DNA of 64,000 bases from a virus (Duplodnaviria > Caudoviricetes). The first letter of the stretch is position 1, and each line of letters begins with the position of its first letter. The stretch is taken from IMG/VR virus record IMGVR_UViG_3300027730_000005. One strand, given 5' to 3'. Below the pieces are notes generated by a model, which was not told the DNA's origin, did not search any database, and saw nothing but the letters and a program-made list of their open reading frames with translations. Made by a program: the position numbers and the translations under genes. Positions 1 through 18,249 of this stretch are shown here, piece after piece.

Positions 1-183
1 TTGATCAACTTTTTTCTCTCGTGCCCTACGTTTGGAATAGTCAGTGTCGGCTGGGTTGTTTTTGTTCTTGGCAGGTGGTCGAGTACCTGCAATTCGTTCT
101 TCTTCACTCTTGCGACGAGTAAAATAATCATTGGCAGCAGAGCCTTCAACGACTGTGGGCTTGAAAAGATTCTCAATAATCAT
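1..183 (-). CDS. Partial hypothetical protein (runs off window start); possible internal head protein
   Basis: My translation: ATG at 183, open to base 1, MIIENLFKPTVVEGSAANDYF...; starts 1 nt after the stop of 185..847; not in the ORF track. Confidence 0.6.
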   Translation of the reverse strand, partial: MIIENLFKPTVVEGSAANDYFTRRKSEEERIAGTRPPAKNKNNPADTDYSKRRAREKKVDQ

Positions 184-184
184 A

Positions 185-847
185 TTATGCTTCTTCTAAG
201 TAATCTTGGCTGGGATCTTGCAACTGTGAACGACGATGTGCTCGAAACATCTCTACTGCCATTTCAGCTTCATCTAAGTCTCTAAACTTGCTGGGCAATA
301 TACGGCCTTGATGGCGAATTTCAAATCCGCGACGTTGATCTCCCCAACACTCTAGACATGTGCCATCTTCTAATGTGATTGTTTTTACAGGACCAGATTC
401 GCCTACACTAACTGGACTCATCATGGCAGTACCTGACATCATTGGCTCTTGGGATTCTTCCTGTGACTGTTCGTCGTATTCGTCTTGATCGTCGGCCTTG
501 GCAGGATTCTTATCTTGAATTTCTTGTTTGGCTTTTTGTTCCAGCTGGTCAAGATATTGTGTGAGATCCTTCTTGACTCGGCTTAACATGTCTTCGTCGA
601 TCTCAGACATGCGTTCAGCCAATGCACTCCGAACAGGCTGAACACTATCGCCAACCATGTTTTTGCCTAATGGTTTCTTTTGATTATCACTGCCCAATAC
701 TGGTGATACGTTTTCTGGCTTGAACAATGCAGGCAGTTGCGGCACTGACTTTTGTTGCTTGTTCAGCCCTTTTTTTACCGAGACGGGAGTAATGTCTGAT
801 TCAATTACGGCCAGACGTTTTAGTATGTTTGCAATATCATAGCTCAT
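185..847 (-). CDS. Hypothetical phage protein
   Basis: 220-aa ORF coupled to dps (ATGA overlap); acidic linker region. Confidence 0.75.
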   Translation of the reverse strand: MSYDIANILKRLAVIESDITPVSVKKGLNKQQKSVPQLPALFKPENVSPVLGSDNQKKPLGKNMVGDSVQPVRSALAERMSEIDEDMLSRVKKDLTQYLDQLEQKAKQEIQDKNPAKADDQDEYDEQSQEESQEPMMSGTAMMSPVSVGESGPVKTITLEDGTCLECWGDQRRGFEIRHQGRILPSKFRDLDEAEMAVEMFRAHRRSQLQDPSQDYLEEA

Positions 848-1284
848 GCTCGTTCAACCTTCAAATAACTGTTCAGTTGCCAACGATACTTGCCATGAGC
901 ACTAAGTCGTTCTGCAATAAAATTAGCAATACCTTGTTGATTTTCTTCGTTGGCTACCGCAAAGCAAGCGTTCAGTACATCTAGCATTTGATTGTTGTTG
1001 GCGTACAATTCTTCCAACATTAATCGAGCACGTGGAATTTTGGTCTGTCCAGAAATCTCTGTGAGTTCACTATAACGTTCTAAACTTCCCGGAGCATACT
1101 CACCTAGATAGCGAATGTATTCTGCTGTGGGATCTAGTGCTGAGTAAGCATCTTCGTAAATGTTTTGAAAGAAATCATGCAATTCTCCAAAGTCGGGACC
1201 TTCTACATTCCAGTGAAATTGATGTGCTTTTAAGTAGTAGGCAAAATTAGTTGCCAGGAGTGTTTTTAAATTGTCCGCGAGCAT
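844..1284 (-). CDS. dps: Dps/ferritin-like DNA-protecting protein
   Basis: YLKAHQFHWNVEGPDFGELHDFF...D..AE ferroxidase motif; start reset to ATG 1284 with AAGGA SD. Confidence 0.93.
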   Translation of the reverse strand: MLADNLKTLLATNFAYYLKAHQFHWNVEGPDFGELHDFFQNIYEDAYSALDPTAEYIRYLGEYAPGSLERYSELTEISGQTKIPRARLMLEELYANNNQMLDVLNACFAVANEENQQGIANFIAERLSAHGKYRWQLNSYLKVERA

Positions 1285-1459
1285 GCTTGTTCCTTTTGTA
1301 TTCCTTGGGCGTGTTAGGCGTCGGGTCCGTTGTGTATTTACCACTCAGCATAGAACCGCCTTGTCTTGTTTGTATACCCATTGGTTGAACTAACACTGCC
1401 ATAGAGCCAGTGCTGGAGCTGCCTGCGCTTGCGTCTTCCATTATTTCATGTGCTCTCAT
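1247..1459 (-). CDS. Small protein with CTS-like leader (MRAHEIME)
   Basis: ORF track 1247..1465; leader resembles neighbouring genes. Confidence 0.6.
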   Translation of the reverse strand: MRAHEIMEDASAGSSSTGSMAVLVQPMGIQTRQGGSMLSGKYTTDPTPNTPKEYKRNKHARGQFKNTPGN

Positions 1460-1748
1460 GTTCAATCCTTAACAATGTGTGGTTCACCATGTGTGCGCCC
1501 GGCGGTCCATCTTTGATGCATGTATTGCTCACTTGAATGCGCCCTTGTGCCGGCGGAACCAATTCTCGGCGTAATTCATATTCGCCCGGCGGTGCATAAA
1601 TCTGTATTAGTTCTTCTAGATACTCTTCTCGCCAGACCCATGTACGTTCTGAAAACAATTCTCCGCCTACATATAGTCTATAATTAGGTGACGGTCCGTC
1701 CCAGTCGACTGAAACATCAGCATTGATCAACACAAACTGTGCAGTCAT
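1446..1748 (-). CDS. Hypothetical protein
   Basis: 100-aa ORF coupled to upstream gene (ATGA overlap). Confidence 0.7.
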   Translation of the reverse strand: MTAQFVLINADVSVDWDGPSPNYRLYVGGELFSERTWVWREEYLEELIQIYAPPGEYELRRELVPPAQGRIQVSNTCIKDGPPGAHMVNHTLLRIEHEST

Positions 1749-2038
1749 GTGTCGGATATGTCAGGAGTAACTGCTCGGTGCAGACGATGTCTTGATGCAG
1801 AACTTAAAAGATGATCATCGTCAGAGTCTGGTTCATATCCACCATAACGACTCGGGTCGGCACGATGTTTAATTCCAGTTTTGAGTTTTTCTATTTTGCC
1901 CATTTTAACTGGGGTTTTGTCTGGTGGAGAATTTGGACCACGGCGACCACTGTTAGAATTACCAGCTTCCTCAACATTCTTTTCGCCTAGGAATCCCATA
2001 CCTTCACGTGGGTGATTAAATAGTTCGTATATCAACAT
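1745..2038 (-). CDS. Hypothetical protein, leader MLIYELF
   Basis: 97-aa ORF fitting the operon. Confidence 0.65.
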   Translation of the reverse strand: MLIYELFNHPREGMGFLGEKNVEEAGNSNSGRRGPNSPPDKTPVKMGKIEKLKTGIKHRADPSRYGGYEPDSDDDHLLSSASRHRLHRAVTPDISDT

Positions 2039-2040
2039 GA

Positions 2041-2367
2041 TTATTCAGTCCAGGGCAGTGGAAGTATTACCACTGGAGGGATAATCTGCAAGTCAATTTG
2101 ATCTTGTACTTGTAACTCTACAGCGTTTTTATCGACACCATTGGTCCAGATCCAGTCAAGCACTTGTTGTTGTGTTAGATCAACGTAAGGTGTAAAAGAT
2201 GCAGAAGCCAACGGAATCTCGCAGGCGGCGAGTGCTGATACCCGGGCGCTGTAGCCGTCTTGTACACCACTGCATGCCCAATAAACTCCAAATACCACAT
2301 CCGGATAACCGTCTGCTTCGGGATAGCATGTCATCTCAGTCACGGTCCAATTGATTGTTGCGGCCAT
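2041..2367 (-). CDS. Hypothetical phage protein (possible tail-associated)
   Basis: 108-aa ORF with typical small phage protein composition. Confidence 0.7.
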   Translation of the reverse strand: MAATINWTVTEMTCYPEADGYPDVVFGVYWACSGVQDGYSARVSALAACEIPLASASFTPYVDLTQQQVLDWIWTNGVDKNAVELQVQDQIDLQIIPPVVILPLPWTE

Positions 2368-2390
2368 TGTAATTTACTTTCTAAAATCTG

Positions 2391-3035
2391 TTATGCCATC
2401 TGCGTGGAAGGAGACAATGCTGCGGCCAGGGCCATACGTTTTTGTCTATGTGCGCCCGAACTTCGTTCATAGTATTGATCTACAATAGCAGCAGCATCTT
2501 CTGCTGTTTTTGCACTCTTCAATCTTTGCCCTGCGTTTGCTTCCTTGTTGTTCAATTCGTACTGTACAAACTCTAATTGGTCTTGTAAGCTAGAATCTTG
2601 TAATGGTTTACGCATTGCATTAGCAAAATCTTGTTGTCGTGATCCGCGCCATTGTGCAATACCATATGCTTTCTCGCCGGGATTCCATGCAGCAGGATTG
2701 AGATTTTGACCTGATTCTGCTTGTAGGTTGGCCACTAGTCCAGCAGCTTGTTCAGGTGACCATCCTTGTTGCATAAAGTAGTCTAGAGCAATTTTTGCAT
2801 TGCCTGCTGTGCCACCACCTGCTCTATTAGATGGTCCAGACATACCAGATCCAGGCAAACGTATTCGAGATCCAGGCTGAATATCATTAGCACTAGCAAA
2901 CTGTGGATTTTGCCACATGATGCCATCTACTGTGGTATCGTAGGACTTTGCTATGTTCGGCAAGGAATCTCCAGATCTCACAGTATAGATATTGTTAGAG
3001 CTAGTGGCTTCAGACAAGAAATCAAATAACTTCAT
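2391..3035 (-). CDS. LysM + phage tail lysozyme-like muramidase
   Basis: YTVRSGDSLPNIAKSY LysM; GLVANLQAES...AYGIAQWRGSR lysozyme motif; leader MKLFDFLSE. Confidence 0.85.
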   Translation of the reverse strand: MKLFDFLSEATSSNNIYTVRSGDSLPNIAKSYDTTVDGIMWQNPQFASANDIQPGSRIRLPGSGMSGPSNRAGGGTAGNAKIALDYFMQQGWSPEQAAGLVANLQAESGQNLNPAAWNPGEKAYGIAQWRGSRQQDFANAMRKPLQDSSLQDQLEFVQYELNNKEANAGQRLKSAKTAEDAAAIVDQYYERSSGAHRQKRMALAAALSPSTQMA

Positions 3036-3036
3036 A

Positions 3037-3999
3037 TTACCCTTTTAACATGGTAGACATGCGACGCATTTGATCCACGCTGTATTCAAAATTTGATTGT
3101 TTACTAGTGCTTTCTTGAAGTTTTGCCGGTGCTGTGCCGCCTGCTGGTATACCTAATTTTGCTCTACCTTGATCAATTACAGAAGGCTGTGTTGCTATTC
3201 TTTGACTAACTGACTGATTAGTTGGATTTGCTGGTGCCGCTGGTTTTGTTGGAGTAGCAGCCTGACCCGTCATATTAGCGGGCGGCGCCTTGGCGTAGCT
3301 GCTACGCTCTTGAGCCGAGGCTGGTCCTCTGAGGTTAGCTGCAGGGCCGCCAGGTTTTTGTGCAGACAAAATAGCGCCTGCTGTGGTAGGCCCAATAATA
3401 CCGTCAGCCGTTAAACCGTTAGCTGTTTGAAATTTCTTAATAGCATCAACATTTGGTTTATTATTCGTTAATAGTCCCATTCTAGATGCATACGCAGCGA
3501 TTGCAGGGGACATTGATTTATTAGCAGCTGGCTTAGCTGGACTTGCTGCTTGTGTAGGTGCTGCTGGTGTAGATGCGGCAGCATTGACTGCCGCTGCTTG
3601 TCCCATACTCATATCTGTAGCACTTGCAGCAGTATCGGCAGCATTGACTGCCGCTGCTTGTCCCATACTCATATCTGTAGCACTTGCAGCAGTATCGGCA
3701 GCATTGACTGCACCTGCTTGTCCCATACTCATATCTGTAGCACCTGCAACAGCGTCAGCCTTGTCAGCGGCAGCCTGTGCTGCTGCCTCTTCACCGGGAT
3801 TACCTACTCCAGTTGCAGAACTTGTTGCTGCTGGTTTACCTTTATTTGGTGCTCGCATGGCAATGTAAGGGTCATTGATGTCGGGTTTGCCGCCACCGCG
3901 GGTGTACCATGCTTGATCTTCTGGACTCATGGCTGCAAATTTGGCAGCATCGGCACCTTGGTACGGATTTGCTTCTCTTAAAAATTCTATTGATCTCAT
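3037..3999 (-). CDS. Ala-rich protein with peptidoglycan-binding domain
   Basis: IKKFQTANGLTADGIIGPTT PG-binding motif; leader MRSIEFLRE; 20-aa tandem repeats. Confidence 0.75.
   Translation of the reverse strand: MRSIEFLREANPYQGADAAKFAAMSPEDQAWYTRGGGKPDINDPYIAMRAPNKGKPAATSSATGVGNPGEEAAAQAAADKADAVAGATDMSMGQAGAVNAADTAASATDMSMGQAAAVNAADTAASATDMSMGQAAAVNAAASTPAAPTQAASPAKPAANKSMSPAIAAYASRMGLLTNNKPNVDAIKKFQTANGLTADGIIGPTTAGAILSAQKPGGPAANLRGPASAQERSSYAKAPPANMTGQAATPTKPAAPANPTNQSVSQRIATQPSVIDQGRAKLGIPAGGTAPAKLQESTSKQSNFEYSVDQMRRMSTMLKG
3576..3750. repeat. 60-bp tandem repeat, ~3 copies (in-frame 20 aa)
   Basis: gcattgactgccgctgcttgtcccatactcatatctgtagcacttgcagcagtatcggca recurs with 60-nt period. 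Confidence 0.95.
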
Positions 4000-4037
4000 G
4001 TGATATTCCTTTATGAATGACCTATGCTTTATTTATT

Positions 4038-4679
4038 CTATTTGCCCTGTGCTGCCAATCTTGCACCATTGTTAAAACTGTTGCTGTGACTGGCAGCATT
4101 TCTGTTGCCACGTGCTTTTGACCATGCATAACCAGCTCTGTGCCCAGAACAATCTTTGGTGCAAGGCGACCCCAAAAATGATAATTCATCCAACTCTTGT
4201 TTTCCAGTGTATCGTTTAATTATGGACATTGATTCCTGATCATTCAACAGAGATGCTAATCCAGGATGTAGTGGGCGTGGCCAGTCGCCAAACTCTACCC
4301 ATTCAGATCCTTGAGTTTCCCAATTTAACATTGGTTTAAATTCGTGAGCTACTATGGCTAAAAAATTGTAGTATCTAAATCCCGACGGATGCCTGAACAC
4401 ATACAACGGGATCAGTTTAAGTGGGCCGTTATACCCTGCTTCTTCTTTGACTTCTCGTTTGACAGCATGTGCTGGATTTTCACCAGCGTCGATTGCACCG
4501 CCCCATGTTCCCCAGGTGTTAGGTTGCTCCACTTGTGATGATCTATGAGCTATACAAATCCGATTGGTATCGGCTGCCAGGAACAAACAACCAGCAGCTT
4601 GCTTGCCCCAGAATCCTGTTTTCTCCAAAGCATCACGATGTTCTTTATCTGACTCAGTCACAAATTCGGTTGCTCTCAT
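4038..4679 (-). CDS. NUDIX hydrolase with C-terminal Cys-containing module
   Basis: Nudix box GGAIDAGENPAHAVKREVKEEAG; leader MRATEFVTE; tail CTKDCSGHRAGYAW. Confidence 0.9.
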   Translation of the reverse strand: MRATEFVTESDKEHRDALEKTGFWGKQAAGCLFLAADTNRICIAHRSSQVEQPNTWGTWGGAIDAGENPAHAVKREVKEEAGYNGPLKLIPLYVFRHPSGFRYYNFLAIVAHEFKPMLNWETQGSEWVEFGDWPRPLHPGLASLLNDQESMSIIKRYTGKQELDELSFLGSPCTKDCSGHRAGYAWSKARGNRNAASHSNSFNNGARLAAQGK

Positions 4680-5155
4680 TTGGCATCTCCAAAGATTGGT
4701 CCACCGACATACTGACCATTCTGACTTAACACACCATTGCGTAGATTGTTGATAATGTTATCAGTGATGTTTCTGCGACGGAAATGCGGCAAAAAAATAT
4801 GTGTTTCTACAGGACGATCGCCCTGCTCTGCTTGGATAGCATACATCCTGTGACGCCCGTCATGATCACGCACCTTGGCTTCTAAATTGAAATCATCGTT
4901 CTCCCAAGCTTCAGGAACTGCTATGGTTAAAAACGGTGCTCCAAACCCTTTATCATTGATCTGTCGGCGTAGATATTGTATAGTTTCTTTTTCGTCAGGA
5001 GAGTTAACATCCAAGGGCAAGCTGAGTTTGAGGAATGTGCTGGGTCGCATGACTGTGCGTAGACCAAAGTAATCTACATCAGCATTGTGCGGAACAGCAC
5101 CGAGACCTTGCCGATTGTCTATCTTTAGTTCCGTTATGAATTCCTTTGATCTCAT
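4676..5155 (-). CDS. ParB/Srx-like domain protein
   Basis: DHDGRHRMYAI motif; leader MRSKEFITE. Confidence 0.6.
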   Translation of the reverse strand: MRSKEFITELKIDNRQGLGAVPHNADVDYFGLRTVMRPSTFLKLSLPLDVNSPDEKETIQYLRRQINDKGFGAPFLTIAVPEAWENDDFNLEAKVRDHDGRHRMYAIQAEQGDRPVETHIFLPHFRRRNITDNIINNLRNGVLSQNGQYVGGPIFGDAK

Positions 5156-5355
5156 GTGTCTATCCTGTGTACATTGGTCACTATGCTGTCTTTGCCGTAT
5201 TGAGCTTGCAGTAATAATCGAGCCATGGCAGGTGACTTGGCAAATATAGCCACATCTATACTGGTAGTATACGAAGGATTTTTGACCCGCACAGACGCAC
5301 TATACACATGAAATCCCGGAAGCAAGTCTTCACAGAGAAATTCTGTTGCTCTCAT
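5152..5355 (-). CDS. Small protein with CTS-like leader MRATEFLCE
   Basis: Start reset to ATG 5355 (TGATG overlap with upstream gene). Confidence 0.75.
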   Translation of the reverse strand: MRATEFLCEDLLPGFHVYSASVRVKNPSYTTSIDVAIFAKSPAMARLLLQAQYGKDSIVTNVHRIDT

Positions 5356-7064
5356 CAGCAGTTCCACTTTCTCAACGCTAATGCTTTGCGTGTGGGTTTG
5401 CCATTGGGTTTTTTCATTGGCCCTTTGACTCCGCCCATCCTGGCACAGAATGATTTACGACGCTTGGCTGCTTTTGATCCTGGCTTGAGTTTGCTGGGCT
5501 TGGTAGTAACTGCCATTTGTAATTTTGAGCCTGGATTCTCTCTACGATAGCTAGCAACACCTTTGGCATTGAGACCGCCCTTTTTGCTCTTACCTGCGCT
5601 TCTACGCCAAGCTGCTGTTTCAAGAATGATTTCTTCATCGGTGAAGAAGTTGAATATGTCTTCAGTAAGACCACGATCAGCCATGGCCTGTTCAAAGTCA
5701 TCAAATATTGCATGGGCTTGTTCTAGGCTGTATACGCTTTCTGTTACACCTTCCTCTACACCCGACTGCATCTGTTGTTTGACTGCACGAGCAACATCTC
5801 CCGCCAATGCGCCAGGGTCATTATCGCCACCGTAGTTGAGCACACTCATGATTGCATTGTGAATCACACGGTCATCTGCACGACGAGCCATATTGGGATA
5901 CATGCGCTCAAACTCAGCATACACTTGATCAGCTAGGTCATCGTATTCACCGTTGAAGCCTTCATCCAGGCCATCTGCTTGTACAGCCCCTTCGCCGTCG
6001 GCATCAAAAGCTACCATTTCTACTTTGGGCCACATACGTGCAGGCACATACAGAATACCCGAAGTTTCGTCATGATCGATCTGGTCGCCAAAGCGAGCCA
6101 TTACTGCATTATATGCCCGTTCACTGTTAACGCTAAAACCCACAGTGTCCGTATCGTCAATACCGCTGTATCCGCCTTCCGCCACACCTTGCTTCTTGAG
6201 AATATCCAGTGCGTGTTTTTCCATCTGTTTTTTGGTAATAGGTTTACCGGGTGCTTCCTTACCTTTGAAATAATCAGAACCTTTTTTATCTCTTGAACCA
6301 TAGGTGCTGTGACTTACTTTGCCATCACGACCGGGTTGTGGTGCTGATTTGTCCATTTCATTCAAGCCTTCCGCCACACCTTGCTCACTTGCTTTGGCTT
6401 TGGCTTCGGCCCTGGTACGACTGTATCCCCGTGCTGTTGCTTCTCGTTCTTGGTTAGGATATATAGATATTGCAAACATTTTTCCATCTTTAACAAAGTA
6501 CCAATCTGTTGGATCTAGATCGTGTCTTTCGTCATCACCGCGATTGAACGCTCCCCTTACTCCGCGGAAAGGCCTGCCTCTGCCTTCCGCCACACTTTCT
6601 TTTTTGGCAGTCTTTGCAGCATCTTTCCAGGCCTGTGCTGTGGGGGCCTTGGGGCTGTCGGCATCTCTACTGGTACCGGCCTTCTTGCGCTTGTTTACAT
6701 TGTAGTATAACCCTTTGTTCTCCTCTGAGATACTTTCGTTAGGCACACAGTTTCTTACCTGCTTGCCAGTCACAGCTGACTTTTTTGTGCCTTCTGCATG
6801 TTTTCCTGGCCAGCACTTGGTGTAACCATTGCTATCTTTCTGACCCTTTTTGATCTCCATGATATTGCCGTGTGTTTTGCACATACCACAGTCTTCACAC
6901 ACCATTTCCATCACAACACTTTCGTTGTGTTTCTTCTTGCCAGCACAATGAGCACGTTGCGAAAAGCCTTTTGGATGAGAGCAATTGATACTGCTTTTGT
7001 ATTTTTGACTCCAGCCTTCATCTAATTTTTTGATTTTTCCAGTTATAAATTCATTTGATTTCAT
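5355..7064 (-). CDS. Modular protein of small basic/Cys-containing domains joined by acidic GVAEG-type linkers; putative internal head polyprotein
   Basis: 569 aa; modules such as INCSHPKGFSQRAHC, KCWPG, GGLNAKGVASY...RRKSFCARM; leader MKSNEFIT. Confidence 0.8.
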   Translation of the reverse strand: MKSNEFITGKIKKLDEGWSQKYKSSINCSHPKGFSQRAHCAGKKKHNESVVMEMVCEDCGMCKTHGNIMEIKKGQKDSNGYTKCWPGKHAEGTKKSAVTGKQVRNCVPNESISEENKGLYYNVNKRKKAGTSRDADSPKAPTAQAWKDAAKTAKKESVAEGRGRPFRGVRGAFNRGDDERHDLDPTDWYFVKDGKMFAISIYPNQEREATARGYSRTRAEAKAKASEQGVAEGLNEMDKSAPQPGRDGKVSHSTYGSRDKKGSDYFKGKEAPGKPITKKQMEKHALDILKKQGVAEGGYSGIDDTDTVGFSVNSERAYNAVMARFGDQIDHDETSGILYVPARMWPKVEMVAFDADGEGAVQADGLDEGFNGEYDDLADQVYAEFERMYPNMARRADDRVIHNAIMSVLNYGGDNDPGALAGDVARAVKQQMQSGVEEGVTESVYSLEQAHAIFDDFEQAMADRGLTEDIFNFFTDEEIILETAAWRRSAGKSKKGGLNAKGVASYRRENPGSKLQMAVTTKPSKLKPGSKAAKRRKSFCARMGGVKGPMKKPNGKPTRKALALRKWNC

Positions 7065-7088
7065 TTAGTTCACCTTTTTCTAACAGTT

Positions 7089-8174
7089 TCATTTGTTTTT
7101 TGCTCTTCCAGCTTTCATATTGGCCAACCAGTGTGCCATGCGTTGTTTTTCACCAGAACTGTTCTTGGCAGTTTTTCTCAAACTACTTACACTGGCTTTG
7201 GTATTTACTCCCACACGTTTGGCCAGACCCTTGCGTCCAGGATTACGGCCGTCAGCAAAGTTTTCGTCAACCGAAGACTCATTGGATGTTGCAACAGGTT
7301 GTTTGGCCTTGTAGATATCTTCCCATTTGTCTGAAATAGCATTCTTTAATTCCAGCGTGGATTTAAAATTATTGTCTTGCATATACTTAATTATCCACAC
7401 AGCACTAGCACGGTCTCCTGAATCAGGCTTGCGAGCATTGCTTAGATCCACGCTGAGATTTTGATCTTCTGATGGATTACCATAGTACCGCATGGTCTTT
7501 AACGCACGTTTTGCTCTATCACTTAGATGTGCTTCGTCGCTCTTGGTAATTAACTCAATCCAGGGCTTTACAAAGTCTGTGGGCTTGCGGGACGATCCAG
7601 CTGGTGTTGGTCCACGTAATACATCACGGGATTGGCCTGGTATCTGTGCTCGACGTTTGTTCAGCAATCGCCATGCTGCTTCGTCTGTGTAGAAAAACAC
7701 AGGTAAGCCTTGTTGCTTGGCTGTGATCAGGATCTGTCGTGTTTCTGGACTGCGATATTCATCTTGTTCTTTGAGCAACACATGAACTTCAGTCACAGGA
7801 GTGATTGGAATAGTGGGCTCTTTGCTAAACACACGGTCTTCTGCTTCTCTGGTTCTTGTACCATTGCTGTGTAACCATGCACGGTCCCAGTAGTCAATGG
7901 GTTTCACAATGTATCGAGAGTTAAACCAGTCACCATTGAGTTTGAACATCACAGCGCCTGATCCCACCCAGCGATGATAATCGCCAGTTATTGTTCGTGT
8001 CAAACTAAGAAAGTATGGATATCCAGCAGGAGCATACTGTTCTTCGCTGCGATTGCCGGTCACGCTGGCCAATTCAAAGTTGCCGGATTGCAGTATTCTT
8101 AACCCAGCTCTGATACTGGTGTAATGAAACAATACATCAGTTGCTCGTTCAATTAAAAATTCCGTTGCTCTCAT
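7089..8174 (-). CDS. Putative ADP-ribosyltransferase-fold protein with basic C-terminal module
   Basis: LFHYTS...ILQSG...FLSLTR pattern typical of ART-fold strands; leader MRATEFLIE. Confidence 0.5.
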   Translation of the reverse strand: MRATEFLIERATDVLFHYTSIRAGLRILQSGNFELASVTGNRSEEQYAPAGYPYFLSLTRTITGDYHRWVGSGAVMFKLNGDWFNSRYIVKPIDYWDRAWLHSNGTRTREAEDRVFSKEPTIPITPVTEVHVLLKEQDEYRSPETRQILITAKQQGLPVFFYTDEAAWRLLNKRRAQIPGQSRDVLRGPTPAGSSRKPTDFVKPWIELITKSDEAHLSDRAKRALKTMRYYGNPSEDQNLSVDLSNARKPDSGDRASAVWIIKYMQDNNFKSTLELKNAISDKWEDIYKAKQPVATSNESSVDENFADGRNPGRKGLAKRVGVNTKASVSSLRKTAKNSSGEKQRMAHWLANMKAGRAKNK

Positions 8175-8539
8175 TATACATACCTTGCTAGTTCATCTTC
8201 ACCTAAATCTTGTATGCGATTGGGCGGGATTTTAGTTGTGGAGAAGTACCATCCGTGGTCATATGTCAATGGAATACCCGTCACATCAATTTGCAACAAT
8301 GTCAATGGATCATCGCTACCCTCTGACTTGGCGTACATCCATCCACCGACCATACTTAGTTCTCTTTGTAACTTGACCTTATCACCTTCGTCTACAACCA
8401 TAAATGCTTTGCCATCATACGGATCTAGCCCAGCATATAGAATTTCTTCTGCGTTTTCAGTACTGGTAATATGGTACGCAGTTTTAAACTCATGGTCATG
8501 ATGTGTCCTTGATTCAGTGACAAATTCAGTTGCTCTCAT
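8174..8539 (-). CDS. Small putative ART/Tpt1-like fold protein
   Basis: AYHITSTENAEEILYAGL...LLQID; start reset to 8539 (MRATEFVTE, ATGA overlap). Confidence 0.5.
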   Translation of the reverse strand: MRATEFVTESRTHHDHEFKTAYHITSTENAEEILYAGLDPYDGKAFMVVDEGDKVKLQRELSMVGGWMYAKSEGSDDPLTLLQIDVTGIPLTYDHGWYFSTTKIPPNRIQDLGEDELARYV

Positions 8540-11500
8540 TTGGGTTCCCATTGCATACTTTTACTACCTTTAACAGTAGGAGTAAACCCTTGACCTCTGT
8601 AGAACTTGGTTAATTTACTTTGACTCACTTGTCCTTTGTCCCAAGGAAACAGTGTCAAGCTGATGCCATCTTCTCTTGCCATGGCTTGTAGTTCTTGCAT
8701 GGCACGTGACCCAACACCTTGACGTAGCGGATATGCTTGAATCCATTTGACTTCAACTGCGCCGCGCTTGCTAAAGCTAGGAACAAGTTCAAACATAGCA
8801 AACTGTTGGTCATCGCCTTTGCCCCAGACCATAACGTGATTGTTCTGCATGGTGTATGGATACTTTGCGTAGACTCGTTCAATCCATGCCTGTGCAGCAT
8901 CATTGTTGCCTAGTTTGATTCTTATTGGCTCTTCTTCTTCGGCTACATCTTTCATTAGATGTTTAGCATCGCCGGACTTCTTCCAAGCATCCCACATGGC
9001 CTTGCCAGGCGGCAATTGATTTCTACTTGGTACAATAGTGTTACCCAACATTCTCACATACGCATAGATGTTACGTGCTATACCGCGGCCTTGATATTCA
9101 AGTTTCAAGCTGGTAACTGCTGACACTAGACCATTTTTGCTGGGTCTAAATTTTGCAAGACCTATCTGTTGATAATTGTCGTCTAGCACTTTGACTTGAA
9201 AATATTCTTTACCATTTATTTCAATCCCAGTGGCACGATATGTCAGCCCATCAAAAATTTGGGTGTCGTTGAACGCTGGATTGAAAACATCTGGATTGAT
9301 AGTTTCATTTAAGTTGTTGGCCATTACTTGTGGTAAGAAACTGGCGGCAATGTGTTGGCAAGTGTTAAAAATGTCAGCATTATCAGTGACCTGCAGATTG
9401 AATGGATAGTCTGTGGTAGGATGCTGTGTGGGGTCTTGCCACCCAGCATAACATTTTTCAATACCAAAGTCAGCTAACAAATCAGTGCAACTCTCTCCAT
9501 ACCTCTCATCCATGTCATGCACACAAGGACTCAATGTAGTGACCATGATGGCATTGGGACCAATACGACCGTGACGTTTGAGATGCTGGTCTATGGCCAC
9601 TCGTTCAGCATGGCGTCGTGTTCCGTTGAGCCCAGGCAAGTTGATAGCATAAGTGTGATTGTTTTTGTTATCAATCAAACAAGCAGCCACACGTCCATAC
9701 TTTTCTGGATCAGTCTCATGACCACGATGTATCATGTTGATGCACTTTTTCAGCACATTATCTAGTTTACCAAGTTTTGTGATCTCTTGGCTTTCATCCA
9801 TATCTTCTTCACCAGGCTCGTCTAGGTCGTGTATGGGCAAGCCAAGGCGTTTGAGCTTGTGACTGTACATGTTTTCTAGCTCTTCGCTGCCAAACGCCAA
9901 CACAGTATGCGGCGGGCCTTGATTGTAATGAGACTTGTCGGCTTGATCAAGATCGCTAATGTCTTGTCCCAACTGATACCAATCTTGGGTGTCGCTCACA
10001 TCCACTTTGATTGTGCCAGCGGGCATTTTGGGAGGTGTTTCAGGACCAGTTGGTTTTTGATTGCCTAGAGCATCCAGGTCACGACGTAATCGTTGTTCTA
10101 ACACTGTGATGTTTTCTGACACTGATTGAGAACGTAGTCTCACTGAGAAGTTACTGGCATCCACTTCTGGATTTGCCTGCATTGCAGTAGCCACCCATTC
10201 TTGACCTCGACGCCAGGCTTCTGTTTGATTTGCTGCCTGTATTACAAATACTGGTTGATTGGAAGATCTATTGTATACTTCCCACTGTGTTTGTGCCATT
10301 GGGATATCTAATTCAACGTCTTCTACTCCTGGAATTGGGGTGGATGTGTATTGGTATTGTTGTTGGCTTGCTGCAACACCCATCTCTGGTACTACTGTAA
10401 CTCCAGCCTGCATACGCCCAGGATTACTACGCATCCAGTTTATGGCCACACGGTTGGCATCACTCTGTACATTGCCTACTCCCGAGAAGCGATGTATTTC
10501 TTGACCGTCCGGATTCAAGATCAACCAGTTGCCAGTGAATGTTTGCTGACCTTGACCCGGACGAGTTAAAGTTTGCGGTATGCCAACGTCAACAATGCCA
10601 CCTTGTGCTGCATCTGAATTATTGCCCTGGCGGGTACGAACACCGTACAATTCAGGAGCTTCGCCACGCATGCCTAACGCCAAACGTGCTTCTTGTTCAG
10701 CTTCGGGTCTACTGGTATTGCTCAACTCTCTCACAGTAGAGTTGTCGCTGATTCTATAGATTTCCCATGGACCTGGGCCAGTGGGCACCAAGTTGCGTGG
10801 CTGTCCTTCGCGTGGTACATTTTGTGTGCTAACGAATGCATTTGATGATCGCGCTGGCACTGTCGACGCCCGGAACAGGTGAGAACGGCCAGCGGTGTTG
10901 CCAAATATATCTGGTCTTGCTTCTCCAGCAGCTCTTATAGCGTTTAGCTCAGATGACGCACGAATTTGTATTTCTTGCCCAGGATTACCTTGTGGGCTTA
11001 CATACCAGATTGGTTGTTCAGTCTGTTGTGGTTCAATTTCACGCACTTCAATGTCAGTTATCATACGAGAATTTTGTTCACGACCTTGAGTTATGAACTG
11101 TTCAGCAGCCTCACGACTTGGGAATCTACGCAACACATTGTTGTCAGACTGGCCAGGAGCTCTAGCAAAGCGGTTCATGTCATTCATCCAAATGCCCCAG
11201 TTGCCTGTACTTGGTTGTGCGGCAGATTGTGGGCCAGGTTGTTGCTGATCACCACCACGGGCAACCACAGTGCCAGCACGATCAACTAAACTAAAGTCAT
11301 GTGGATTATTTTCCCCTGAAACAAACTGTCTAAACTTTTGTACAGCGTCTTCTTGACTTGATGCTGTGATCGATGATCTATTGTAACCGGCTCGAGCATC
11401 ATAAACGCTATAGGACAATGATGGCTTCGGATCCTGATATGGTCGTAGCGGTTTTGCCTGTAGAGTGTTCCGTGCGCTGGCCCAGTCTGGGTAGTTGCCT

Positions 11501-14500
11501 GGTTCTATAGCCTTGGCGATGGCTTCTTCCTTGCTAGAAGCAACAATTTCAATGCTGGCAAAATATCCAGGACGACTCACATCCCACCAATATTTTTGTC
11601 CCTTTGGTGTCTTGCCTTTGGCAAGATTACGGGCGAGATTCTGTTGCTCTAGTTCTTGAAAAGTTGCTTTTCTAAAGTCTTTGATGGCCTGTTGCGTTTC
11701 TTTGCTTAGTTTGTCGCCGACTTCTTTGCTATTGCCCTGCAACGATACCATGTACTTGGCAAACTCTTGAATCATATCACCATATTCGTCCTTGGTACCG
11801 TTAGGATTCAACAGTTTGTACAGCTTCTTGAGATATTCTTGGCGATACTTTTCAGGATCCATCGCAGCGTCCAGGGCCACAGTAAATCGTAATAGGGTAT
11901 CTTCAATCTTGCTGAAGTTTGAATCCAACCAGTCGCCACCCGGACTCCGGAATTCAATGTATCCTGTCTTGGTATTGATACTGGTATATTTTTCTGTAGT
12001 GCCTGTGTGAATGGCCTTGGTGGCAATGTCTTCCATGTGCTCACGCATCTTGTCCATGACCTGCGGAGCAATATCAGGATTGCGTTTCAGCATGGTTTTA
12101 ATTTTGCCAATTGCTGACTTGGCATAGTTATTGCCTGAACGTCCAAACAGTTCTAGCACATATTCATCGCCCATGAGCAGGGCCAGTTTGACATAGTCCA
12201 GTTTGTCAAGACTGTAGTTGGGTACTGAAATGTTGATATGCAAGCCAGTGCTGTCATTGGTATAGCAACCAGACTTGTCTGCCCAAGCCTTGACCTTGTT
12301 TAGATCTGAAATCATTTCATCTATGGGCATAGGCGGACTAACAAATTCTAAACCTTCGTCGCCAGGGTTGTCGCCTTCTAAACTGCCGTCAGGTTCCACA
12401 ACATAGGTACCTGCTTCACGACGGCCGCCATGGTAATTTCTACTGGCGTTCACAGGTTTACCCATGTAACTGGAGAATTCATCAGCCACTTGATCTATAT
12501 CCATGTCACCGTCGTTGCCCTCATTAGCGTCAGTGTAATAGGGCCATTCAATATCAAAGTTGCTTTCGATGTCACTCATGGTTTGATATTTGTCATCCAA
12601 GAAACTGCCTTCATCGTACTCGTCTCGTTGTTCTTCTGCAAACGCTTCAAATGCATCATTGAAGACACGGCCTTGATCTTCAAAAGCTTCCAGCACAAAC
12701 TGTTCTTGTAATTCATCAAGTCTGGCACTCAGCAGTTGAGAGAAGTCTTCGCTCTCTTGTGGCAAGTCAGGATTGGCATCCATGATTTCGTCACGAGCTT
12801 GTAGCATGGCTTCATCACGATCAAACAAGTCATTAACGTTGACAAAGTCACGCATGTAATCTACTCCATCGCGTGTCCAAGCTTCAGCAGTTTGTTCCTG
12901 CTGCCATTCCTCGTACTCGTTTTGTATTTCTTCCATTAGGTCATCTACTGCACGGCGTCCATTGTGGTCACCGTCATGGAAAAAGTCTCGAATGTCACTG
13001 AAGCTTCTGGTACGTTGATCCTGATCGTAGTCTGGTTCCCAGTCAGGTTCTTGTTCATCGACCCCAACATCGGGCACAATCATTTCAAATTCCATGCCTG
13101 CCTGTGCGCCTGTTTGTGCTGCTAACTGACGCAGATTGGTGCTGGTCATCTTGATTTCAAACAGATCTTTCTCTTTGAACTCTCGCAACATCTTGTTTAA
13201 ACCGGCTGTGAGTAATGCAGGATGACCTTGTGAATCTGTTTGTAATCCAAGTTTGTTGGCTTCCTTGCCCACAGCACCTGGACGCACATCTCGGGTCAAG
13301 GCCATGACAAATCTTGGATCGCGTGCCTGTGCCTTTGTGGGTATGTATCCTGACGCTTCTTCCAGTGTGACCCCATCAAACATTTCAGGCTGTTCTTCAG
13401 CCCACTGTCGCATGATACGGCCAGCCATGGCGTTGGCTTGGTCTTCCCAAGGGCTACCAGTTTCACCAGCATCTATAGGCAGGGGATTTCTTTCATCCTG
13501 CTGACGATGTGTCATCTCATGGGCCATGGTGCGAAGTATATCCAACACATGGCGTCCCGCGGTGGCCAAGATCAGTGTGTTGCTTTCTGGTTCGTATTGA
13601 CCAAAGCTACCGTTCTCTTGACTCCATTCTGGTGTTGTTTCCAAACGCAATCTAGGTGGATTCTCTAATTTAAGTTTATCTACACAACTGGCATAGAAAC
13701 GATGTAGGATCTTTTTCAAATGGTCAAGTTCTACACTTTCATCCACTTGTTCTGATTCAGTACCAGCAGGGTGATCTTGGCCAGCATACGCAGTACCTGG
13801 ATACCAGTAATCACGCATGCCGTAATTGACTTTCTTTCTGGCAGCAGGCTTACGATTTAAACTCAACTCACGATCTTGTATTGCTGTCTTGGCATCTTTT
13901 AATTTGCCAATGCAACCCATATTTCTCAACAATTTAAATGCAATGTTCTCGCAGCCAAACTCACCATTCTTTTCCAGGCCAGTTTGGCGCATTGTTTTGA
14001 TCTTGTCCCACAGCTGATTCACAGCATCTGCATTGCCGGACTTGATAGCTGAATGTATTCTGGCATCAAGATCAGCTGTTTTGTGTTGTACACAAGAGTC
14101 ATCTATGCTAGCACGACGGCGCTGTGGAACTTGTACCCAGTCACCATTCTTTACGCTGTAAATGCCTTGACTCACATGCTTTTGATCACTGGGCTGCACA
14201 TACAGTTCCACTGGAACGCCAGCAATCTTTATGTCATGCTCGGCATTATACTGATATTTTTTTGCATTGAACAGTTCTTGATACACAGGATCGTCAGGCA
14301 TGTCCACCACAAGGTGTAGATCAATGTCTGAATGGCGAGTATAAGAATAGGCAGCATTGCTACCTGATATGGTAATGTCCTGAATGTTGAGATCATCAAC
14401 ACCCAGGAATTCTTGAAAATTTGACGCAATTGCCAGCAACTTGTCACGCACATCAGGTAACAAGTGCTCGTCTGACCCCCACAAACGGGGGTTCAAACGT

Positions 14501-14556
14501 TGATGGAATTTTACAGCATCGGCGAGATTAAAGTTGTCAAGATCATGGAAATTCAT
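8536..14556 (-). CDS. 2006-aa multi-enzyme (polyvalent) protein: nucleotidyltransferase, zincin peptidase, amidoligase, repeats, deaminase, two GNATs
   Basis: SGSNAAY..SDIDLH; AHEMTH; PDGSL..GLEFVSPP..STGLHINI..IEFRSPG; HAE..SPC..C; YQGRGIA; LRQGVGSRAM. Confidence 0.85.
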   Translation of the reverse strand: MNFHDLDNFNLADAVKFHQRLNPRLWGSDEHLLPDVRDKLLAIASNFQEFLGVDDLNIQDITISGSNAAYSYTRHSDIDLHLVVDMPDDPVYQELFNAKKYQYNAEHDIKIAGVPVELYVQPSDQKHVSQGIYSVKNGDWVQVPQRRRASIDDSCVQHKTADLDARIHSAIKSGNADAVNQLWDKIKTMRQTGLEKNGEFGCENIAFKLLRNMGCIGKLKDAKTAIQDRELSLNRKPAARKKVNYGMRDYWYPGTAYAGQDHPAGTESEQVDESVELDHLKKILHRFYASCVDKLKLENPPRLRLETTPEWSQENGSFGQYEPESNTLILATAGRHVLDILRTMAHEMTHRQQDERNPLPIDAGETGSPWEDQANAMAGRIMRQWAEEQPEMFDGVTLEEASGYIPTKAQARDPRFVMALTRDVRPGAVGKEANKLGLQTDSQGHPALLTAGLNKMLREFKEKDLFEIKMTSTNLRQLAAQTGAQAGMEFEMIVPDVGVDEQEPDWEPDYDQDQRTRSFSDIRDFFHDGDHNGRRAVDDLMEEIQNEYEEWQQEQTAEAWTRDGVDYMRDFVNVNDLFDRDEAMLQARDEIMDANPDLPQESEDFSQLLSARLDELQEQFVLEAFEDQGRVFNDAFEAFAEEQRDEYDEGSFLDDKYQTMSDIESNFDIEWPYYTDANEGNDGDMDIDQVADEFSSYMGKPVNASRNYHGGRREAGTYVVEPDGSLEGDNPGDEGLEFVSPPMPIDEMISDLNKVKAWADKSGCYTNDSTGLHINISVPNYSLDKLDYVKLALLMGDEYVLELFGRSGNNYAKSAIGKIKTMLKRNPDIAPQVMDKMREHMEDIATKAIHTGTTEKYTSINTKTGYIEFRSPGGDWLDSNFSKIEDTLLRFTVALDAAMDPEKYRQEYLKKLYKLLNPNGTKDEYGDMIQEFAKYMVSLQGNSKEVGDKLSKETQQAIKDFRKATFQELEQQNLARNLAKGKTPKGQKYWWDVSRPGYFASIEIVASSKEEAIAKAIEPGNYPDWASARNTLQAKPLRPYQDPKPSLSYSVYDARAGYNRSSITASSQEDAVQKFRQFVSGENNPHDFSLVDRAGTVVARGGDQQQPGPQSAAQPSTGNWGIWMNDMNRFARAPGQSDNNVLRRFPSREAAEQFITQGREQNSRMITDIEVREIEPQQTEQPIWYVSPQGNPGQEIQIRASSELNAIRAAGEARPDIFGNTAGRSHLFRASTVPARSSNAFVSTQNVPREGQPRNLVPTGPGPWEIYRISDNSTVRELSNTSRPEAEQEARLALGMRGEAPELYGVRTRQGNNSDAAQGGIVDVGIPQTLTRPGQGQQTFTGNWLILNPDGQEIHRFSGVGNVQSDANRVAINWMRSNPGRMQAGVTVVPEMGVAASQQQYQYTSTPIPGVEDVELDIPMAQTQWEVYNRSSNQPVFVIQAANQTEAWRRGQEWVATAMQANPEVDASNFSVRLRSQSVSENITVLEQRLRRDLDALGNQKPTGPETPPKMPAGTIKVDVSDTQDWYQLGQDISDLDQADKSHYNQGPPHTVLAFGSEELENMYSHKLKRLGLPIHDLDEPGEEDMDESQEITKLGKLDNVLKKCINMIHRGHETDPEKYGRVAACLIDNKNNHTYAINLPGLNGTRRHAERVAIDQHLKRHGRIGPNAIMVTTLSPCVHDMDERYGESCTDLLADFGIEKCYAGWQDPTQHPTTDYPFNLQVTDNADIFNTCQHIAASFLPQVMANNLNETINPDVFNPAFNDTQIFDGLTYRATGIEINGKEYFQVKVLDDNYQQIGLAKFRPSKNGLVSAVTSLKLEYQGRGIARNIYAYVRMLGNTIVPSRNQLPPGKAMWDAWKKSGDAKHLMKDVAEEEEPIRIKLGNNDAAQAWIERVYAKYPYTMQNNHVMVWGKGDDQQFAMFELVPSFSKRGAVEVKWIQAYPLRQGVGSRAMQELQAMAREDGISLTLFPWDKGQVSQSKLTKFYRGQGFTPTVKGSKSMQWEPK

Positions 14557-14569
14557 GATCTATTTATCG

Positions 14570-16324: not shown

Positions 16325-17014
16325 ATGTATTTACAAAACAAATATACCCGTTGTTATTATAATATTATTCAACGAGCCAACATCAGAATTCTTAAACCCC
16401 CATACGAACATCATCATATAATTCCCCGGAGCCTAGGCGGAAATAATTTTAAAAAAAACATAGTCAAATTAACAGCACATGAACATTTTGTGTGCCACCT
16501 TTTGTTAACAAAAATGGTCGAAGGTAAGAATAGAGAAAAGATGGTTTATGCAGCCTGGGCAATGGCAAATCAAGAAAATCAAAATCAACAACGACACAAG
16601 GTTACTGGAAAAATTTATTCTATTCTAAAACAAGAATATTGTAAGGTTAAATCATTGCATACTAAACTTAACAATCCCATGCATGACCCTGAAATTCGAT
16701 TACGGCATCAAGAAGCAATTACTAAACGAGGGAAAACTTTAGGGAACACTGGACATAAACGTGGTGCAATGTCAGAAGAATTAAAAGCAATTCTTCGTCA
16801 AAAAACAATAGACTCAATGACCAGCGAAAGACGAGAACAGATTAAACAACAACAGTTAAACAGGACACCGGAACAGAAAGAAAAATATGCATTTGCTCAT
16901 TCTAAAAGAATATCATGCATATATTGTCGTTGTGTATGTGCTCCTGGAAACTTTGCCCGTTATCACGGTAATAACTGTAAATTAAATAATCTACAAGTGG
17001 CGGGCATTCAATAG
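16325..17014 (+). mobile_element. Free-standing HNH homing endonuclease with NUMOD3-like tail
   Basis: EHHHIIPRSLGG.N...NIVKLTAHEHFVCHLLL; opposite orientation to operon; AT-rich; AAGGAG SD. Confidence 0.88.
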
Positions 17015-17556: not shown

Positions 17557-18249
17557 TTATGGTCGTTTTTGCACTTGTACGGTTTTACGAGTTAGCCCAG
17601 GGCATAGCATTGCCAGCATGGTAATATGCTTGAGATCATTGTGTTCTACAAAATAATGTTCCCGGCTCCATGATGAATGCGGTTTTGTTCTACCCCATCG
17701 GTAACCTTGTAGTATAGTATCAGTGAACCATTTTTCAGTAACAGGACTGGCCACGAGATCTGGAGCCTGATGGCTGATCCAATTCCACACTGCTTGTTTT
17801 TTATCTGTGGACAGCTTCTTTTCTTTAAGATAAGTTCTGTAAGGATATTTGGGTTGATTGTTTAACATGACAACATCCCTGGAATACGCAAGTACTGCTT
17901 GTTTCATAGTGGATTTTGTTGGATAATTCCTGTACATTGTCTCAACGTCTTTGATGTCATTGGTGTACACATGAAATCTATTTTGCCCATAGGTGCGATG
18001 AATGTATGCACTGCGAAGATTTTCTAATACGTCCACTGCATGCATTATGTTTTGTTTGGTCAATTCGTCAGTCACTGGGTGTCCAACTGACAAATTATAT
18101 TGATCACGTCTATGTAACCGTTCCAGGATCTTTGTGAGAGAAAGATTGTTCAACAGCCACGCACCATCAATATCAAAACTTATTGCATATTCATACTTTC
18201 CAAAATAAAGTGATCCGCGTGGGTCACACTGTAAATAGGGTAGTGACAT
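17557..18249 (-). CDS. Hypothetical protein
   Basis: 230-aa ORF. Confidence 0.7.
   Translation of the reverse strand: MSLPYLQCDPRGSLYFGKYEYAISFDIDGAWLLNNLSLTKILERLHRRDQYNLSVGHPVTDELTKQNIMHAVDVLENLRSAYIHRTYGQNRFHVYTNDIKDVETMYRNYPTKSTMKQAVLAYSRDVVMLNNQPKYPYRTYLKEKKLSTDKKQAVWNWISHQAPDLVASPVTEKWFTDTILQGYRWGRTKPHSSWSREHYFVEHNDLKHITMLAMLCPGLTRKTVQVQKRP

Follow-up and report, generated by a model that had tools for sequence, protein, structure and literature searches.

A T4-like N-terminal leader on unrelated proteins marks a candidate head-cargo array in an uncultured jumbo phage

The DNA considered here is a stretch of 64,000 nucleotides (the window) from the IMG/VR record IMGVR_UViG_3300027730_000005, a virus of the Caudoviricetes, and the subject is a locus at the start of this window in which proteins that are otherwise unrelated begin with nearly the same nine residues. 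This leader, M-[RK]-x-x-E-F-[ILV]-x-E, is probably this lineage's version of the capsid-targeting sequence (CTS) of phage T4, which would make the locus an array of tagged cargo. Since the tag closely resembles the T4 head-loading tag, the enzymes that carry it are likely to be loaded into the virion and to be injected along with the DNA. What is new here is that the leader has nine residues, how large the array is and which enzymes it contains, and that the tags and the linkers of polyproteins have a cut site in common.

A leader shared by unrelated proteins

The locus comprises positions 1-14556 of the window and about 1.8 kb to the left of it; its genes are tightly packed, with many stop-start overlaps of the ATGA or TAATG type, and it adjoins the DNA polymerase gene. 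In what follows, G000 is the contig that holds the window, L-numbers are IMG/VR loci with the leader, G006 is the record behind L089, and L127-L131 are the relatives G001-G005.

Eight consecutive genes on the minus strand (window 2391-8539) open with the leader in the form M-[RK]-x-x-[ED]-F-[ILV]-x-E. Their N-termini are MKLFDFLSE (start at 3035), MRSIEFLRE (3999), MRATEFVTE (4679), MRSKEFITE (5155), MRATEFLCE (5355), MKSNEFITG (7064), MRATEFLIE (8174), and MRATEFVTE (8539). An earlier note on this DNA had quoted these eight 9-mers as the starts of unrelated proteins; all of them were found again at their places on the minus strand, and none stands at any further real gene start of the 154-kb contig. 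A six-frame scan of the whole contig with M[RK]xx[ED]F gave nine matches, eight of which are these gene starts and the ninth a frame of eight codons, while the full DNA pattern of the 9-mer occurs seven times in the window as against 0.00 times in 100 shuffles that preserve dinucleotide composition.

The earlier note had also held that the DNA itself is conserved. This is true of the four genes that begin with MRATEF, which have 17 of 18 bases in common (ATGAGAGCAACNGAATTT). However, the Thr codon in these four genes is ACC, ACA, ACG, or ACT, many different codons are used at positions 7-9, and the DNA upstream of the leader genes is not conserved; selection therefore acts on the peptide rather than on the DNA. 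Three looser variants proposed in the same note, MRAHEIMED at 1459, MLIYELF at 2038, and MIIENLFKPTVVE at 183, are present and are conserved in L089, but they fit the motif only in part.

The leader family in IMG/VR

IMG/VR was searched with a pattern of 17 specified bases encoding MRATEF, in which the [ILV]xE that ends the leader was not included. At least 118 viral loci were found, with almost all of the matches at the start of an open reading frame (ORF), and in about two thirds of them [ILV]xE follows. A further 76 unique ORFs with leader variants (e.g., MRAKEFITE, MKINEIITE, and MRIIDLLTE) neighbour the MRATEF loci. In the resulting set of 136 unique leader ORFs, Glu5, Phe6, [ILV]7, and Glu9 are nearly invariant, residue 10 is small, and nothing is conserved beyond it: position 9 is Glu in 134 and Asp in the other two, position 7 is Ile, Leu, or Val in 129, and position 6 is Phe in 110 and otherwise Ile or Leu. 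At internal Met residues, the motif occurs in 9 of 8,102 cases. The bodies behind the leaders belong to unrelated families, as judged by Pfam and by fold, and the part they share ends at residue 9; GH19 lysozymes, NUDIX, ParBc_2, deaminase, and DUF6321 proteins recur among them.

Each of six complete relatives that carry the leader has between one and six strict leaders per genome, and the reversed-pattern controls gave none. Peptidase_S77, the family of the T4 prohead protease gp21, was found in nine of the ten leader-carrying viral records tested (E values of 1e-24 to 2e-30), including G006 and G005, the tenth record being 30% complete.

Two sets of sequences were set aside. One consists of proteins of 52-71 residues that begin with MRATEFMHF(I/M)N behind a strong AGGAGG Shine-Dalgarno sequence (L011, L018, L034, L052, L072, L094, and others); it is probably unrelated to the leader family because only the first six residues are common and the x-E end is absent. 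The other is a group of four IMG/VR contigs of 15.7-15.8 kb, which had been considered as a small element; one of them matches a part of G005 exactly, and there are differences among the other three.

Likeness to the T4 capsid-targeting sequence

In T4, the CTS is present on IPI, IPII, and IPIII, which are internal proteins, as well as on Alt (Mullaney and Black 1996; PMC8442874, PMC9026906, PMC5694885). Its sequence is MKTYQEFIAE; it undergoes a single cut, and fusion to it leads to the packaging of any protein (PMC8442874; PMC3012670). Work with amber suppressors assigned targeting to residues 4 and 7 and processing to residues 8 and 10, where Asp10 blocks cleavage (PMC9026906). Alt is cut at ITE-6 and LTE-619 (PMC5694885).

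The leader described here resembles the CTS in several respects. Both are short N-terminal propeptides that head unrelated proteins; they are identical in the core E-F-[ILV]-x-E, the end is of the (I/L)-x-E type recognized by gp21, and the residue at P1' is small. In an alignment that starts at the cut site, the Phe, the Ile/Leu/Val, and the Glu of T4 are all present in the leader, which is without only the aromatic residue at position 4. The T4 cargo also includes an ADP-ribosyltransferase (Alt) along with small basic proteins. The differences are that the leader has nine residues rather than ten, that there are more cargo genes and more kinds of enzyme, that the same cut site also separates the modules of polyproteins, and that the system is known here from its sequence.

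If the leader acts as the CTS does, it would bind to the scaffolding core during head assembly, so that the attached protein is built into the prohead; a gp21-type prohead protease would then cut after the Glu of [ILV]-x-E and free the mature protein within the head; and, at infection, the freed protein would exit with the DNA.

The arrangement also recalls the hypervariable internal-protein loci of the T-even phages (Repoila et al. 1994, as cited in PMC9026906), in which, as far as that citation goes, the bodies are exchanged among related phages and the CTS alone is conserved. In contrast to what is cited for those loci, the present one extends over some 16 kb, is found in a jumbo phage beside the DNA polymerase gene, and combines single genes and polyproteins.

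A closer comparison is offered by the Ralstonia jumbo phage RsoM2USA, which is also T4-related. Ten abundant bands from its purified virions were identified by liquid chromatography with tandem mass spectrometry, one of which is ORF89 at 28.57 kDa (PMC8504454). The gene at the place of ORF89 starts with MKTFKQFLSE and has a computed mass of 28,562 Da, which makes ORF89 a virion protein bearing a leader, and another gene, gp385, is a homologue of the ParB-like cargo protein of the window and lies two genes from the major capsid gene. However, the leader of RsoM2USA is of the ten-residue T4 style, only two of its genes fit the pattern, and its authors did not note it (PMC8504454). In other phages, the cargo homologues JA29_140/141 are near the prohead core protease. 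DUF6321 proteins of the beads-on-a-string kind lie between g15/g16 and g17 in T4-like cyanophages, where the next gene in DSL-LC02 starts with MKSFNQFLSE.

The jumbo phages phiKZ, 201phi2-1, and SPN3US likewise have heads containing many proteins (the ejection or inner-body proteins) that are cut after Glu, often at multiple sites, by a protease related to gp21 (PMC5694885, PMC10052503). Their motif is (S/A/G)-x-E, though, and they differ further in having long propeptides, no short universal N-terminal tag, and another lineage.

Portability of the tag and the borders of polyprotein modules

The earlier note had described the leader as a portable tag, and this description is borne out: cargo homologues exist without it or with its ten-residue T4 form, and modules switch between tagged genes and polyproteins at [ILV]xE. 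Thus, the homologues of the 361-residue protein of the locus in Salicola phage SCTP-2 and Dickeya phage JA29 begin at the conserved domain, without a leader, and the ParB-like homologue gp385 of RsoM2USA starts with the T4-style 10-mer MQTFKQFLSE, joined at the same place. Moreover, standalone leader-tagged genes of other contigs correspond to internal modules of the three polyproteins encoded here, which have 672, 569, and 2006 residues. The gene cassettes of the locus differ between G000 and G006 at the boundaries of the leader genes.

The leader Glu of such standalone genes aligns with an internal [ILVM]xE of the G000 polyproteins at 6 of the 14 junctions that could be mapped, as compared with a background of 1.7% (P = 6.6e-8). 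These six are VDE|NFADG, VAE|EEEPIR, LNE|TINPDV, IKE|VVHPDI, IME|IKKGQK, and ILE|TAAW. LDE|GWSQKYK also fits the leader junction; it stands behind an alignment gap and is hence outside the 14. In the 2006-residue protein, the module borders at VDE-273, LNE-1751, and VAE-1873 coincide with the starts of standalone leader genes elsewhere. In the 569- and 672-residue proteins, [ILV]xE is mostly found in VAE|G linkers between small basic modules. A fusion also occurs the other way round in L125, where the gene at 8174..8539 of the window (121 residues) is fused behind a GNAT module via ...EITTE|S.

Since the modules of the three polyproteins are separated by the same [ILV]-x-E sites, it is probable that the protease cuts them as well, into many small basic peptides and enzyme domains. 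A more general proposal is that [ILV]-x-E has two roles, closing the tag and marking module borders universally, such that the prohead protease would dice polyproteins within the head and the modules would move freely in evolution; this is a tentative proposal, with the balance somewhat against it.

The 2006-residue protein recalls the polyvalent proteins described from phages and conjugative elements by Iyer, Burroughs, Anand, de Souza, and Aravind (2017; PMC5512222), which are likewise multi-enzyme giants with peptidase-like, GNAT, and deaminase-fold domains. These were predicted to be packaged and delivered with the DNA, and self-processing by their own metallopeptidase was proposed (PMC5512222). 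Here, in contrast, the module borders carry a prohead-protease motif and match standalone leader-tagged genes. The protein contains at least two unrelated enzyme domains, as polyvalent proteins do by definition, and its modules exist as separate genes elsewhere.

Points against packaging and other explanations

Several observations weigh against the idea that the leader delivers proteins to the head. The nine-residue form is known solely as a sequence, both here and in every phage that carries it, and it is missing the aromatic residue found at position 4 of the T4 CTS (Tyr4, concerned with targeting) and present in the form found in RsoM2USA and DSL-LC02. The strict 9-mer was absent from the cultured relatives tested (Atu_ph07, Phosso, Vibrio phage 2.275.O, CBB, and SCTP-2), and there is but one strict leader in G005, the closest complete relative. 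Within the locus, the leader of the 569-residue protein (start at 7064) ends in Gly, the first LDE coming seven residues further on, and the 2006-residue protein, which begins without a leader, is a weaker candidate for packaging. Of the 14 mapped junctions, eight lie off any site, and an overall enrichment of [ILV]xE in the 2006-residue protein was considered and rejected (21 observed versus 25 expected), with the borders alone being on sites. Finally, the locus adjoins replication genes rather than head genes, and the contig has no capsid, portal, or protease gene; Pfam models for the T4 protease and capsid protein gave no match in it, an absence that is uninformative because the contig is incomplete. 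As to the T4-style form, a search for the 10-mer pattern among five cultured phages gave a match in RsoM2USA only.

An explanation at the level of the nucleic acid would be that the shared 5' end is a DNA or RNA device, either a microhomology for the exchange of cassettes or a translation-start context linked to the ATGA overlap, and that the peptide has no role in sorting. The 17 of 18 bases shared by four genes would fit with this, as would the fact that most leader genes overlap the stop codon of the preceding gene (ATGA, TAATG), which favours an A after the ATG, and the differences between the G000 and G006 cassettes at the leader boundaries; in the T-even phages, the CTS coding sequence is itself thought to aid the exchange of internal-protein genes (Repoila 1994, to the extent that it is cited in PMC9026906). 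However, the Thr codon is found in all four of its forms, and in the 76 independent variants positions 5, 6, and 9 are freely synonymous while Glu, Phe, and Glu are kept; the [ILV]xE that was left unspecified in the search recurs behind most of the matches; and polyproteins retain this junction internally, at places that require no start codon. The freedom of the synonymous codons and the retention of the junctions in polyproteins contradict a purely DNA-level role, which we regard as unlikely, although such a device can act alongside capsid targeting without replacing it.

Another possibility is that the leader is a tag for a different partner, for example, a degron for a phage Lon-like AAA+ protease or the handle of a modifying enzyme. 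A gene for an ATP-dependent Lon/AAA+-like protease of 755 residues does lie 10 kb away (window 18224-20491, minus strand; phrog_4871, E value 1e-235). When the 3,311 ORFs neighbouring 118 loci were clustered and the top clusters were compared with Pfam, however, no enzyme was found to travel with the leader; the frequent neighbours were Dps, DNA polymerase B, the T4-type terminase, and proteins without an assignment. The motif, moreover, is a residue-for-residue match to the T4 CTS and to the cleavage rule of gp21, and Peptidase_S77 co-occurs with it genome-wide. A partner of this other kind is improbable, the nearby Lon-like protease being a minor possibility. A third idea, that the leader genes are paralogues that have retained an ancestral N-terminus and that the tag is not portable, draws on their being adjacent and co-oriented in the manner of tandem duplicates. 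It can hardly be entertained: the bodies (lysozyme, NUDIX, ParB/Srx, ADP-ribosyltransferase, and DUF6321) are unrelated, the similarity ends at residue 9, and the same bodies occur elsewhere without the leader or with a different one. Because the folds are unrelated, common ancestry of the leader genes is excluded.

The modular cargo array put forward in the earlier note stands with regard to the T4-like leader at the residues that mutagenesis found to be critical (position 4 excepted), to a T4-related lineage with a gp21-type protease in its relatives, and to the portability of the tag; the packaging itself is probable. The locus would be a hyperplastic cargo region whose tagged proteins are a lysozyme, a protein that binds peptidoglycan, a NUDIX hydrolase, a ParB-like protein, and one or two proteins of the ADP-ribosyltransferase fold, and which also holds three polyproteins.

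The genes of the locus

All the genes described in this section are on the minus strand. The leftmost is that of the 672-residue protein, a polyprotein of the beads-on-a-string kind, of which the window contains the N-terminal end (1..183); the gene runs off the window (G000:27160-29178). It starts with the longer leader variant MIIENLFKPTVVE|G. The frequency of [ILV]xE in this protein is enriched 2.1x, among the highest in the genome, and in L043 and L085 there are GNAT-like genes with a leader that align with its internal junction IKE|VVHPDI. Next to it are an acidic protein of 220 residues (185..847), which has no strict leader but has VIE at residues 14-16, is 87% identical in L089, and belongs to no Pfam family, and a Dps/ferritin-like protein without a leader (844..1284; Pfam Ferritin, E value 3e-20). 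The latter gene probably starts at the ATG at 1284, because its homologues align from residue 20-21 of the longer ORF. A leaderless Dps/ferritin-like gene is often a neighbour of leader genes in other contigs (about 20 IMG/VR loci). There follow a 70-residue protein with the leader variant MRAHEIMED (1247..1459; MKVHEIMED in L089), a 97-residue protein with the partial leader MLIYELF (1745..2038; MRLYEFF in L089), and a DUF7936 protein without a strict leader (2041..2367; Pfam E value 1e-16).

The series of eight leader genes begins with that of a peptidoglycan hydrolase (2391..3035), in which MKLFDFLSE precedes a LysM domain (E value 1.5e-10) and a phage tail lysozyme (Phage_lysozyme2, E value 1e-31); its orthologue in L089 starts with MKSFEFLSE. 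The second protein (3037..3999) has MRSIEFLRE in front of an Ala-rich repeat protein with a peptidoglycan-binding domain (Pfam PG_binding_1, E value 5e-6). In the third (4038..4679), MRATEFVTE is followed by a NUDIX hydrolase (Pfam NUDIX, E value 5e-13) and a small basic C-terminal module joined to it at LDE|LSFLGS. This module is a separate leader-tagged gene of 63-67 residues in L089, L107, L013, and L016; G006 is without the NUDIX domain, yet keeps the module as a leader-tagged gene of its own.

The fourth protein (4676..5155; 159 residues) starts with MRSKEFITE and has a putative ParB/sulfiredoxin-like domain with an HDGRHR motif. It has no Pfam match; its best Foldseek matches, although weak (E values of 0.01-0.1), are all to Srx, ParB, PadC, Noc, or KorB, an H-x-G-R-x-R motif is invariant in the alignment of its homologues (alignment A2), and an Atlas lead points to ParB_N (0.93). 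The earlier note had named lysozyme, NUDIX, ParB-like, and ADP-ribosyltransferase-like cargo, of which the first two are confirmed by Pfam and the last by fold (see below), whereas the ParB-like assignment is a putative one that draws on these weaker fold matches and the motif. The fifth gene (5152..5355) joins MRATEFLCE to a 58-residue protein for which Pfam gave no family. It is followed by that of the 569-residue protein (5355..7064), a second beads-on-a-string polyprotein, which begins with MKSNEFITG...LDE|GWSQKYK, has small basic or Cys-bearing modules between linkers of the VAE|G type, and ends with DUF6321 (E value 2e-21); its 2.9x enrichment in [ILV]xE is the highest in the genome. IME|IKKGQ and ILE|TAAW, like LDE|GWSQ, are junctions of this protein at which the leader Glu of standalone genes aligns.

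The seventh protein (7089..8174; 361 residues) consists of MRATEFLIE, a domain with a DarT/Tpt1-like ADP-ribosyltransferase fold, and a basic module of 58 residues that begins at VDE|NFADG; in other contigs, this NFADG module stands behind four different leaders. The structure was predicted from 8 sequences, with a predicted local distance difference test (pLDDT) score of 70.5, and a Foldseek comparison of it with the PDB gave DarT (7yk3, 7omw, and 8baq) and Tpt1 (7yw4), with E values of 3e-4 to 3e-3, a probability of 1.0, and template-modelling scores by target of 0.42-0.60. The predicted structure accordingly has the ADP-ribosyltransferase fold. Its opening H-Y-T/S motif (FHYTS) is conserved in most homologues (alignment A1). 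In the eighth protein (8174..8539; 121 residues), MRATEFVTE precedes a domain of 112 residues with Atlas feature matches to PARP (0.92) and Arr-ms (0.91); this domain may be a minimal Arr/PARP-like ADP-ribosyltransferase, a lead that comes from the language model only.

The gene of the 2006-residue polyvalent protein (8536..14556) is the last of the locus. The protein comprises a nucleotidyltransferase-like N-terminus, a segment like an HExxH metallopeptidase, an amidoligase, a deaminase, and two GNAT-like modules. Pfam gave dCMP_cyt_deam_1 (E value 6e-10) and Amidoligase_2 (E value 7e-6); the matches to NTP_transf_2, DUF6782, and GNAT are below the threshold. Sequence searches of the PDB with the two ends of the protein gave nothing useful.

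Four nucleotides before the ATG of this last gene is ATAAATA (14561..14567, minus strand), which agrees with the T4 late-promoter consensus TATAAATA at seven of eight bases and could possibly be the late promoter for the string of coupled genes downstream. The same motif is found 4-5 nucleotides before the ATG of seven genes of the contig (at 14561-14567, 16250-16256, and 17554-17560, with others at 112-147 kb of G000), and related motifs precede many leader genes in IMG/VR. This placement suggests T4-late-like promoters that would give mRNAs with a very short leader or none. When the other genes with ATAAATA in front of them were assigned to PHROGs, the motif could not be shown to be a marker of late or structural genes, and scans for sigma-70 promoters and terminators were at chance level only.

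The phage and its relatives

The source of the window is an IMG/VR viral contig of 153,873 bp, which CheckV rates as about 44% complete; from these two figures, the full genome is probably that of a jumbo phage of roughly 350 kb. Nearly all of the genes of the contig are on the minus strand, and its DNA polymerase and clamp loader are of the T4 type. The nearest cultured phages are T4-related jumbo phages, namely Phosso and Atu_ph07 (46-49% identity) and the Rak2/CBB/GAP32 group (about 42%). Uncultured jumbo phage records in IMG/VR are nearer by DNA polymerase (G005 at 72% and G001-G004 at 62-64% identity), and the closest relative, G006 (L089), shares the locus itself, with 81-90% nucleotide identity in the flanks. 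A megablast of the region against cultured phages gave no match. The locus was found almost unchanged in at least 17 metagenome runs from lakes and other freshwater in many studies, which argues for a real and stable arrangement rather than an assembly artefact.

Some virion genes are present on the contig, even though the head genes are not, as is indicated by genes of the tail-fibre type: a collagen-repeat tail fibre protein of 1522 residues (window 35813-40381, minus strand) and a 779-residue protein like a tail fibre or baseplate wedge (40745-43084, minus strand). The Lon/AAA+-like protease gene (18224-20491) is unusual for a phage. A lone ORF of 229 residues on the plus strand (16325-17014) stands amid minus-strand genes and has a weak match to HNH_5 (E value 0.017); it may be a homing endonuclease insertion beside the intergenic region bearing TATAAATA.

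In the relatives G001-G005, the core or scaffold genes that flank the gp21-type protease begin with MNKFEKLIE, MDNKKFEKLIDLIINE, or MLDAIKPLLESGIINE, N-termini that show the E...[LI]-x-E rhythm of the cargo leader. The G001 record (IMGVR_UViG_3300027749_002876; 524 kb) contains two copies of the DNA polymerase, at 18.7 kb and 508 kb, that are 62-64% identical to the query, and the leader loci L009 and L054 are also found in it, across both halves of the record. G001 may thus join two related genomes.

Significance

Were the tag to act as it does in T4, the proteome injected by a widespread group of uncultured lake jumbo phages could be read from sequence, with genes that start with M-R-A-T-E-F-[ILV]-x-E and polyprotein segments bounded by [ILV]-x-E as candidate first-strike proteins. 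The cargo (wall hydrolases, NUDIX, a ParB-like nuclease, DarT-like ADP-ribosyltransferases, a deaminase, and acetyltransferases) resembles a kit for takeover or counter-defence that needs no gene expression. A short, portable tag of this kind would also be useful for loading foreign proteins into phage heads.

The T4 CTS would then extend from three small proteins and Alt in one phage to a general and evolvable loading system in T4-related jumbo phages. Giant polyvalent proteins may, in that case, be processed by the head protease, as an alternative route to self-processing. Should [ILV]-x-E also turn out to be the general border between modules, the injected proteome would be combinatorial, predictable from sequence, and far larger than that of T4.

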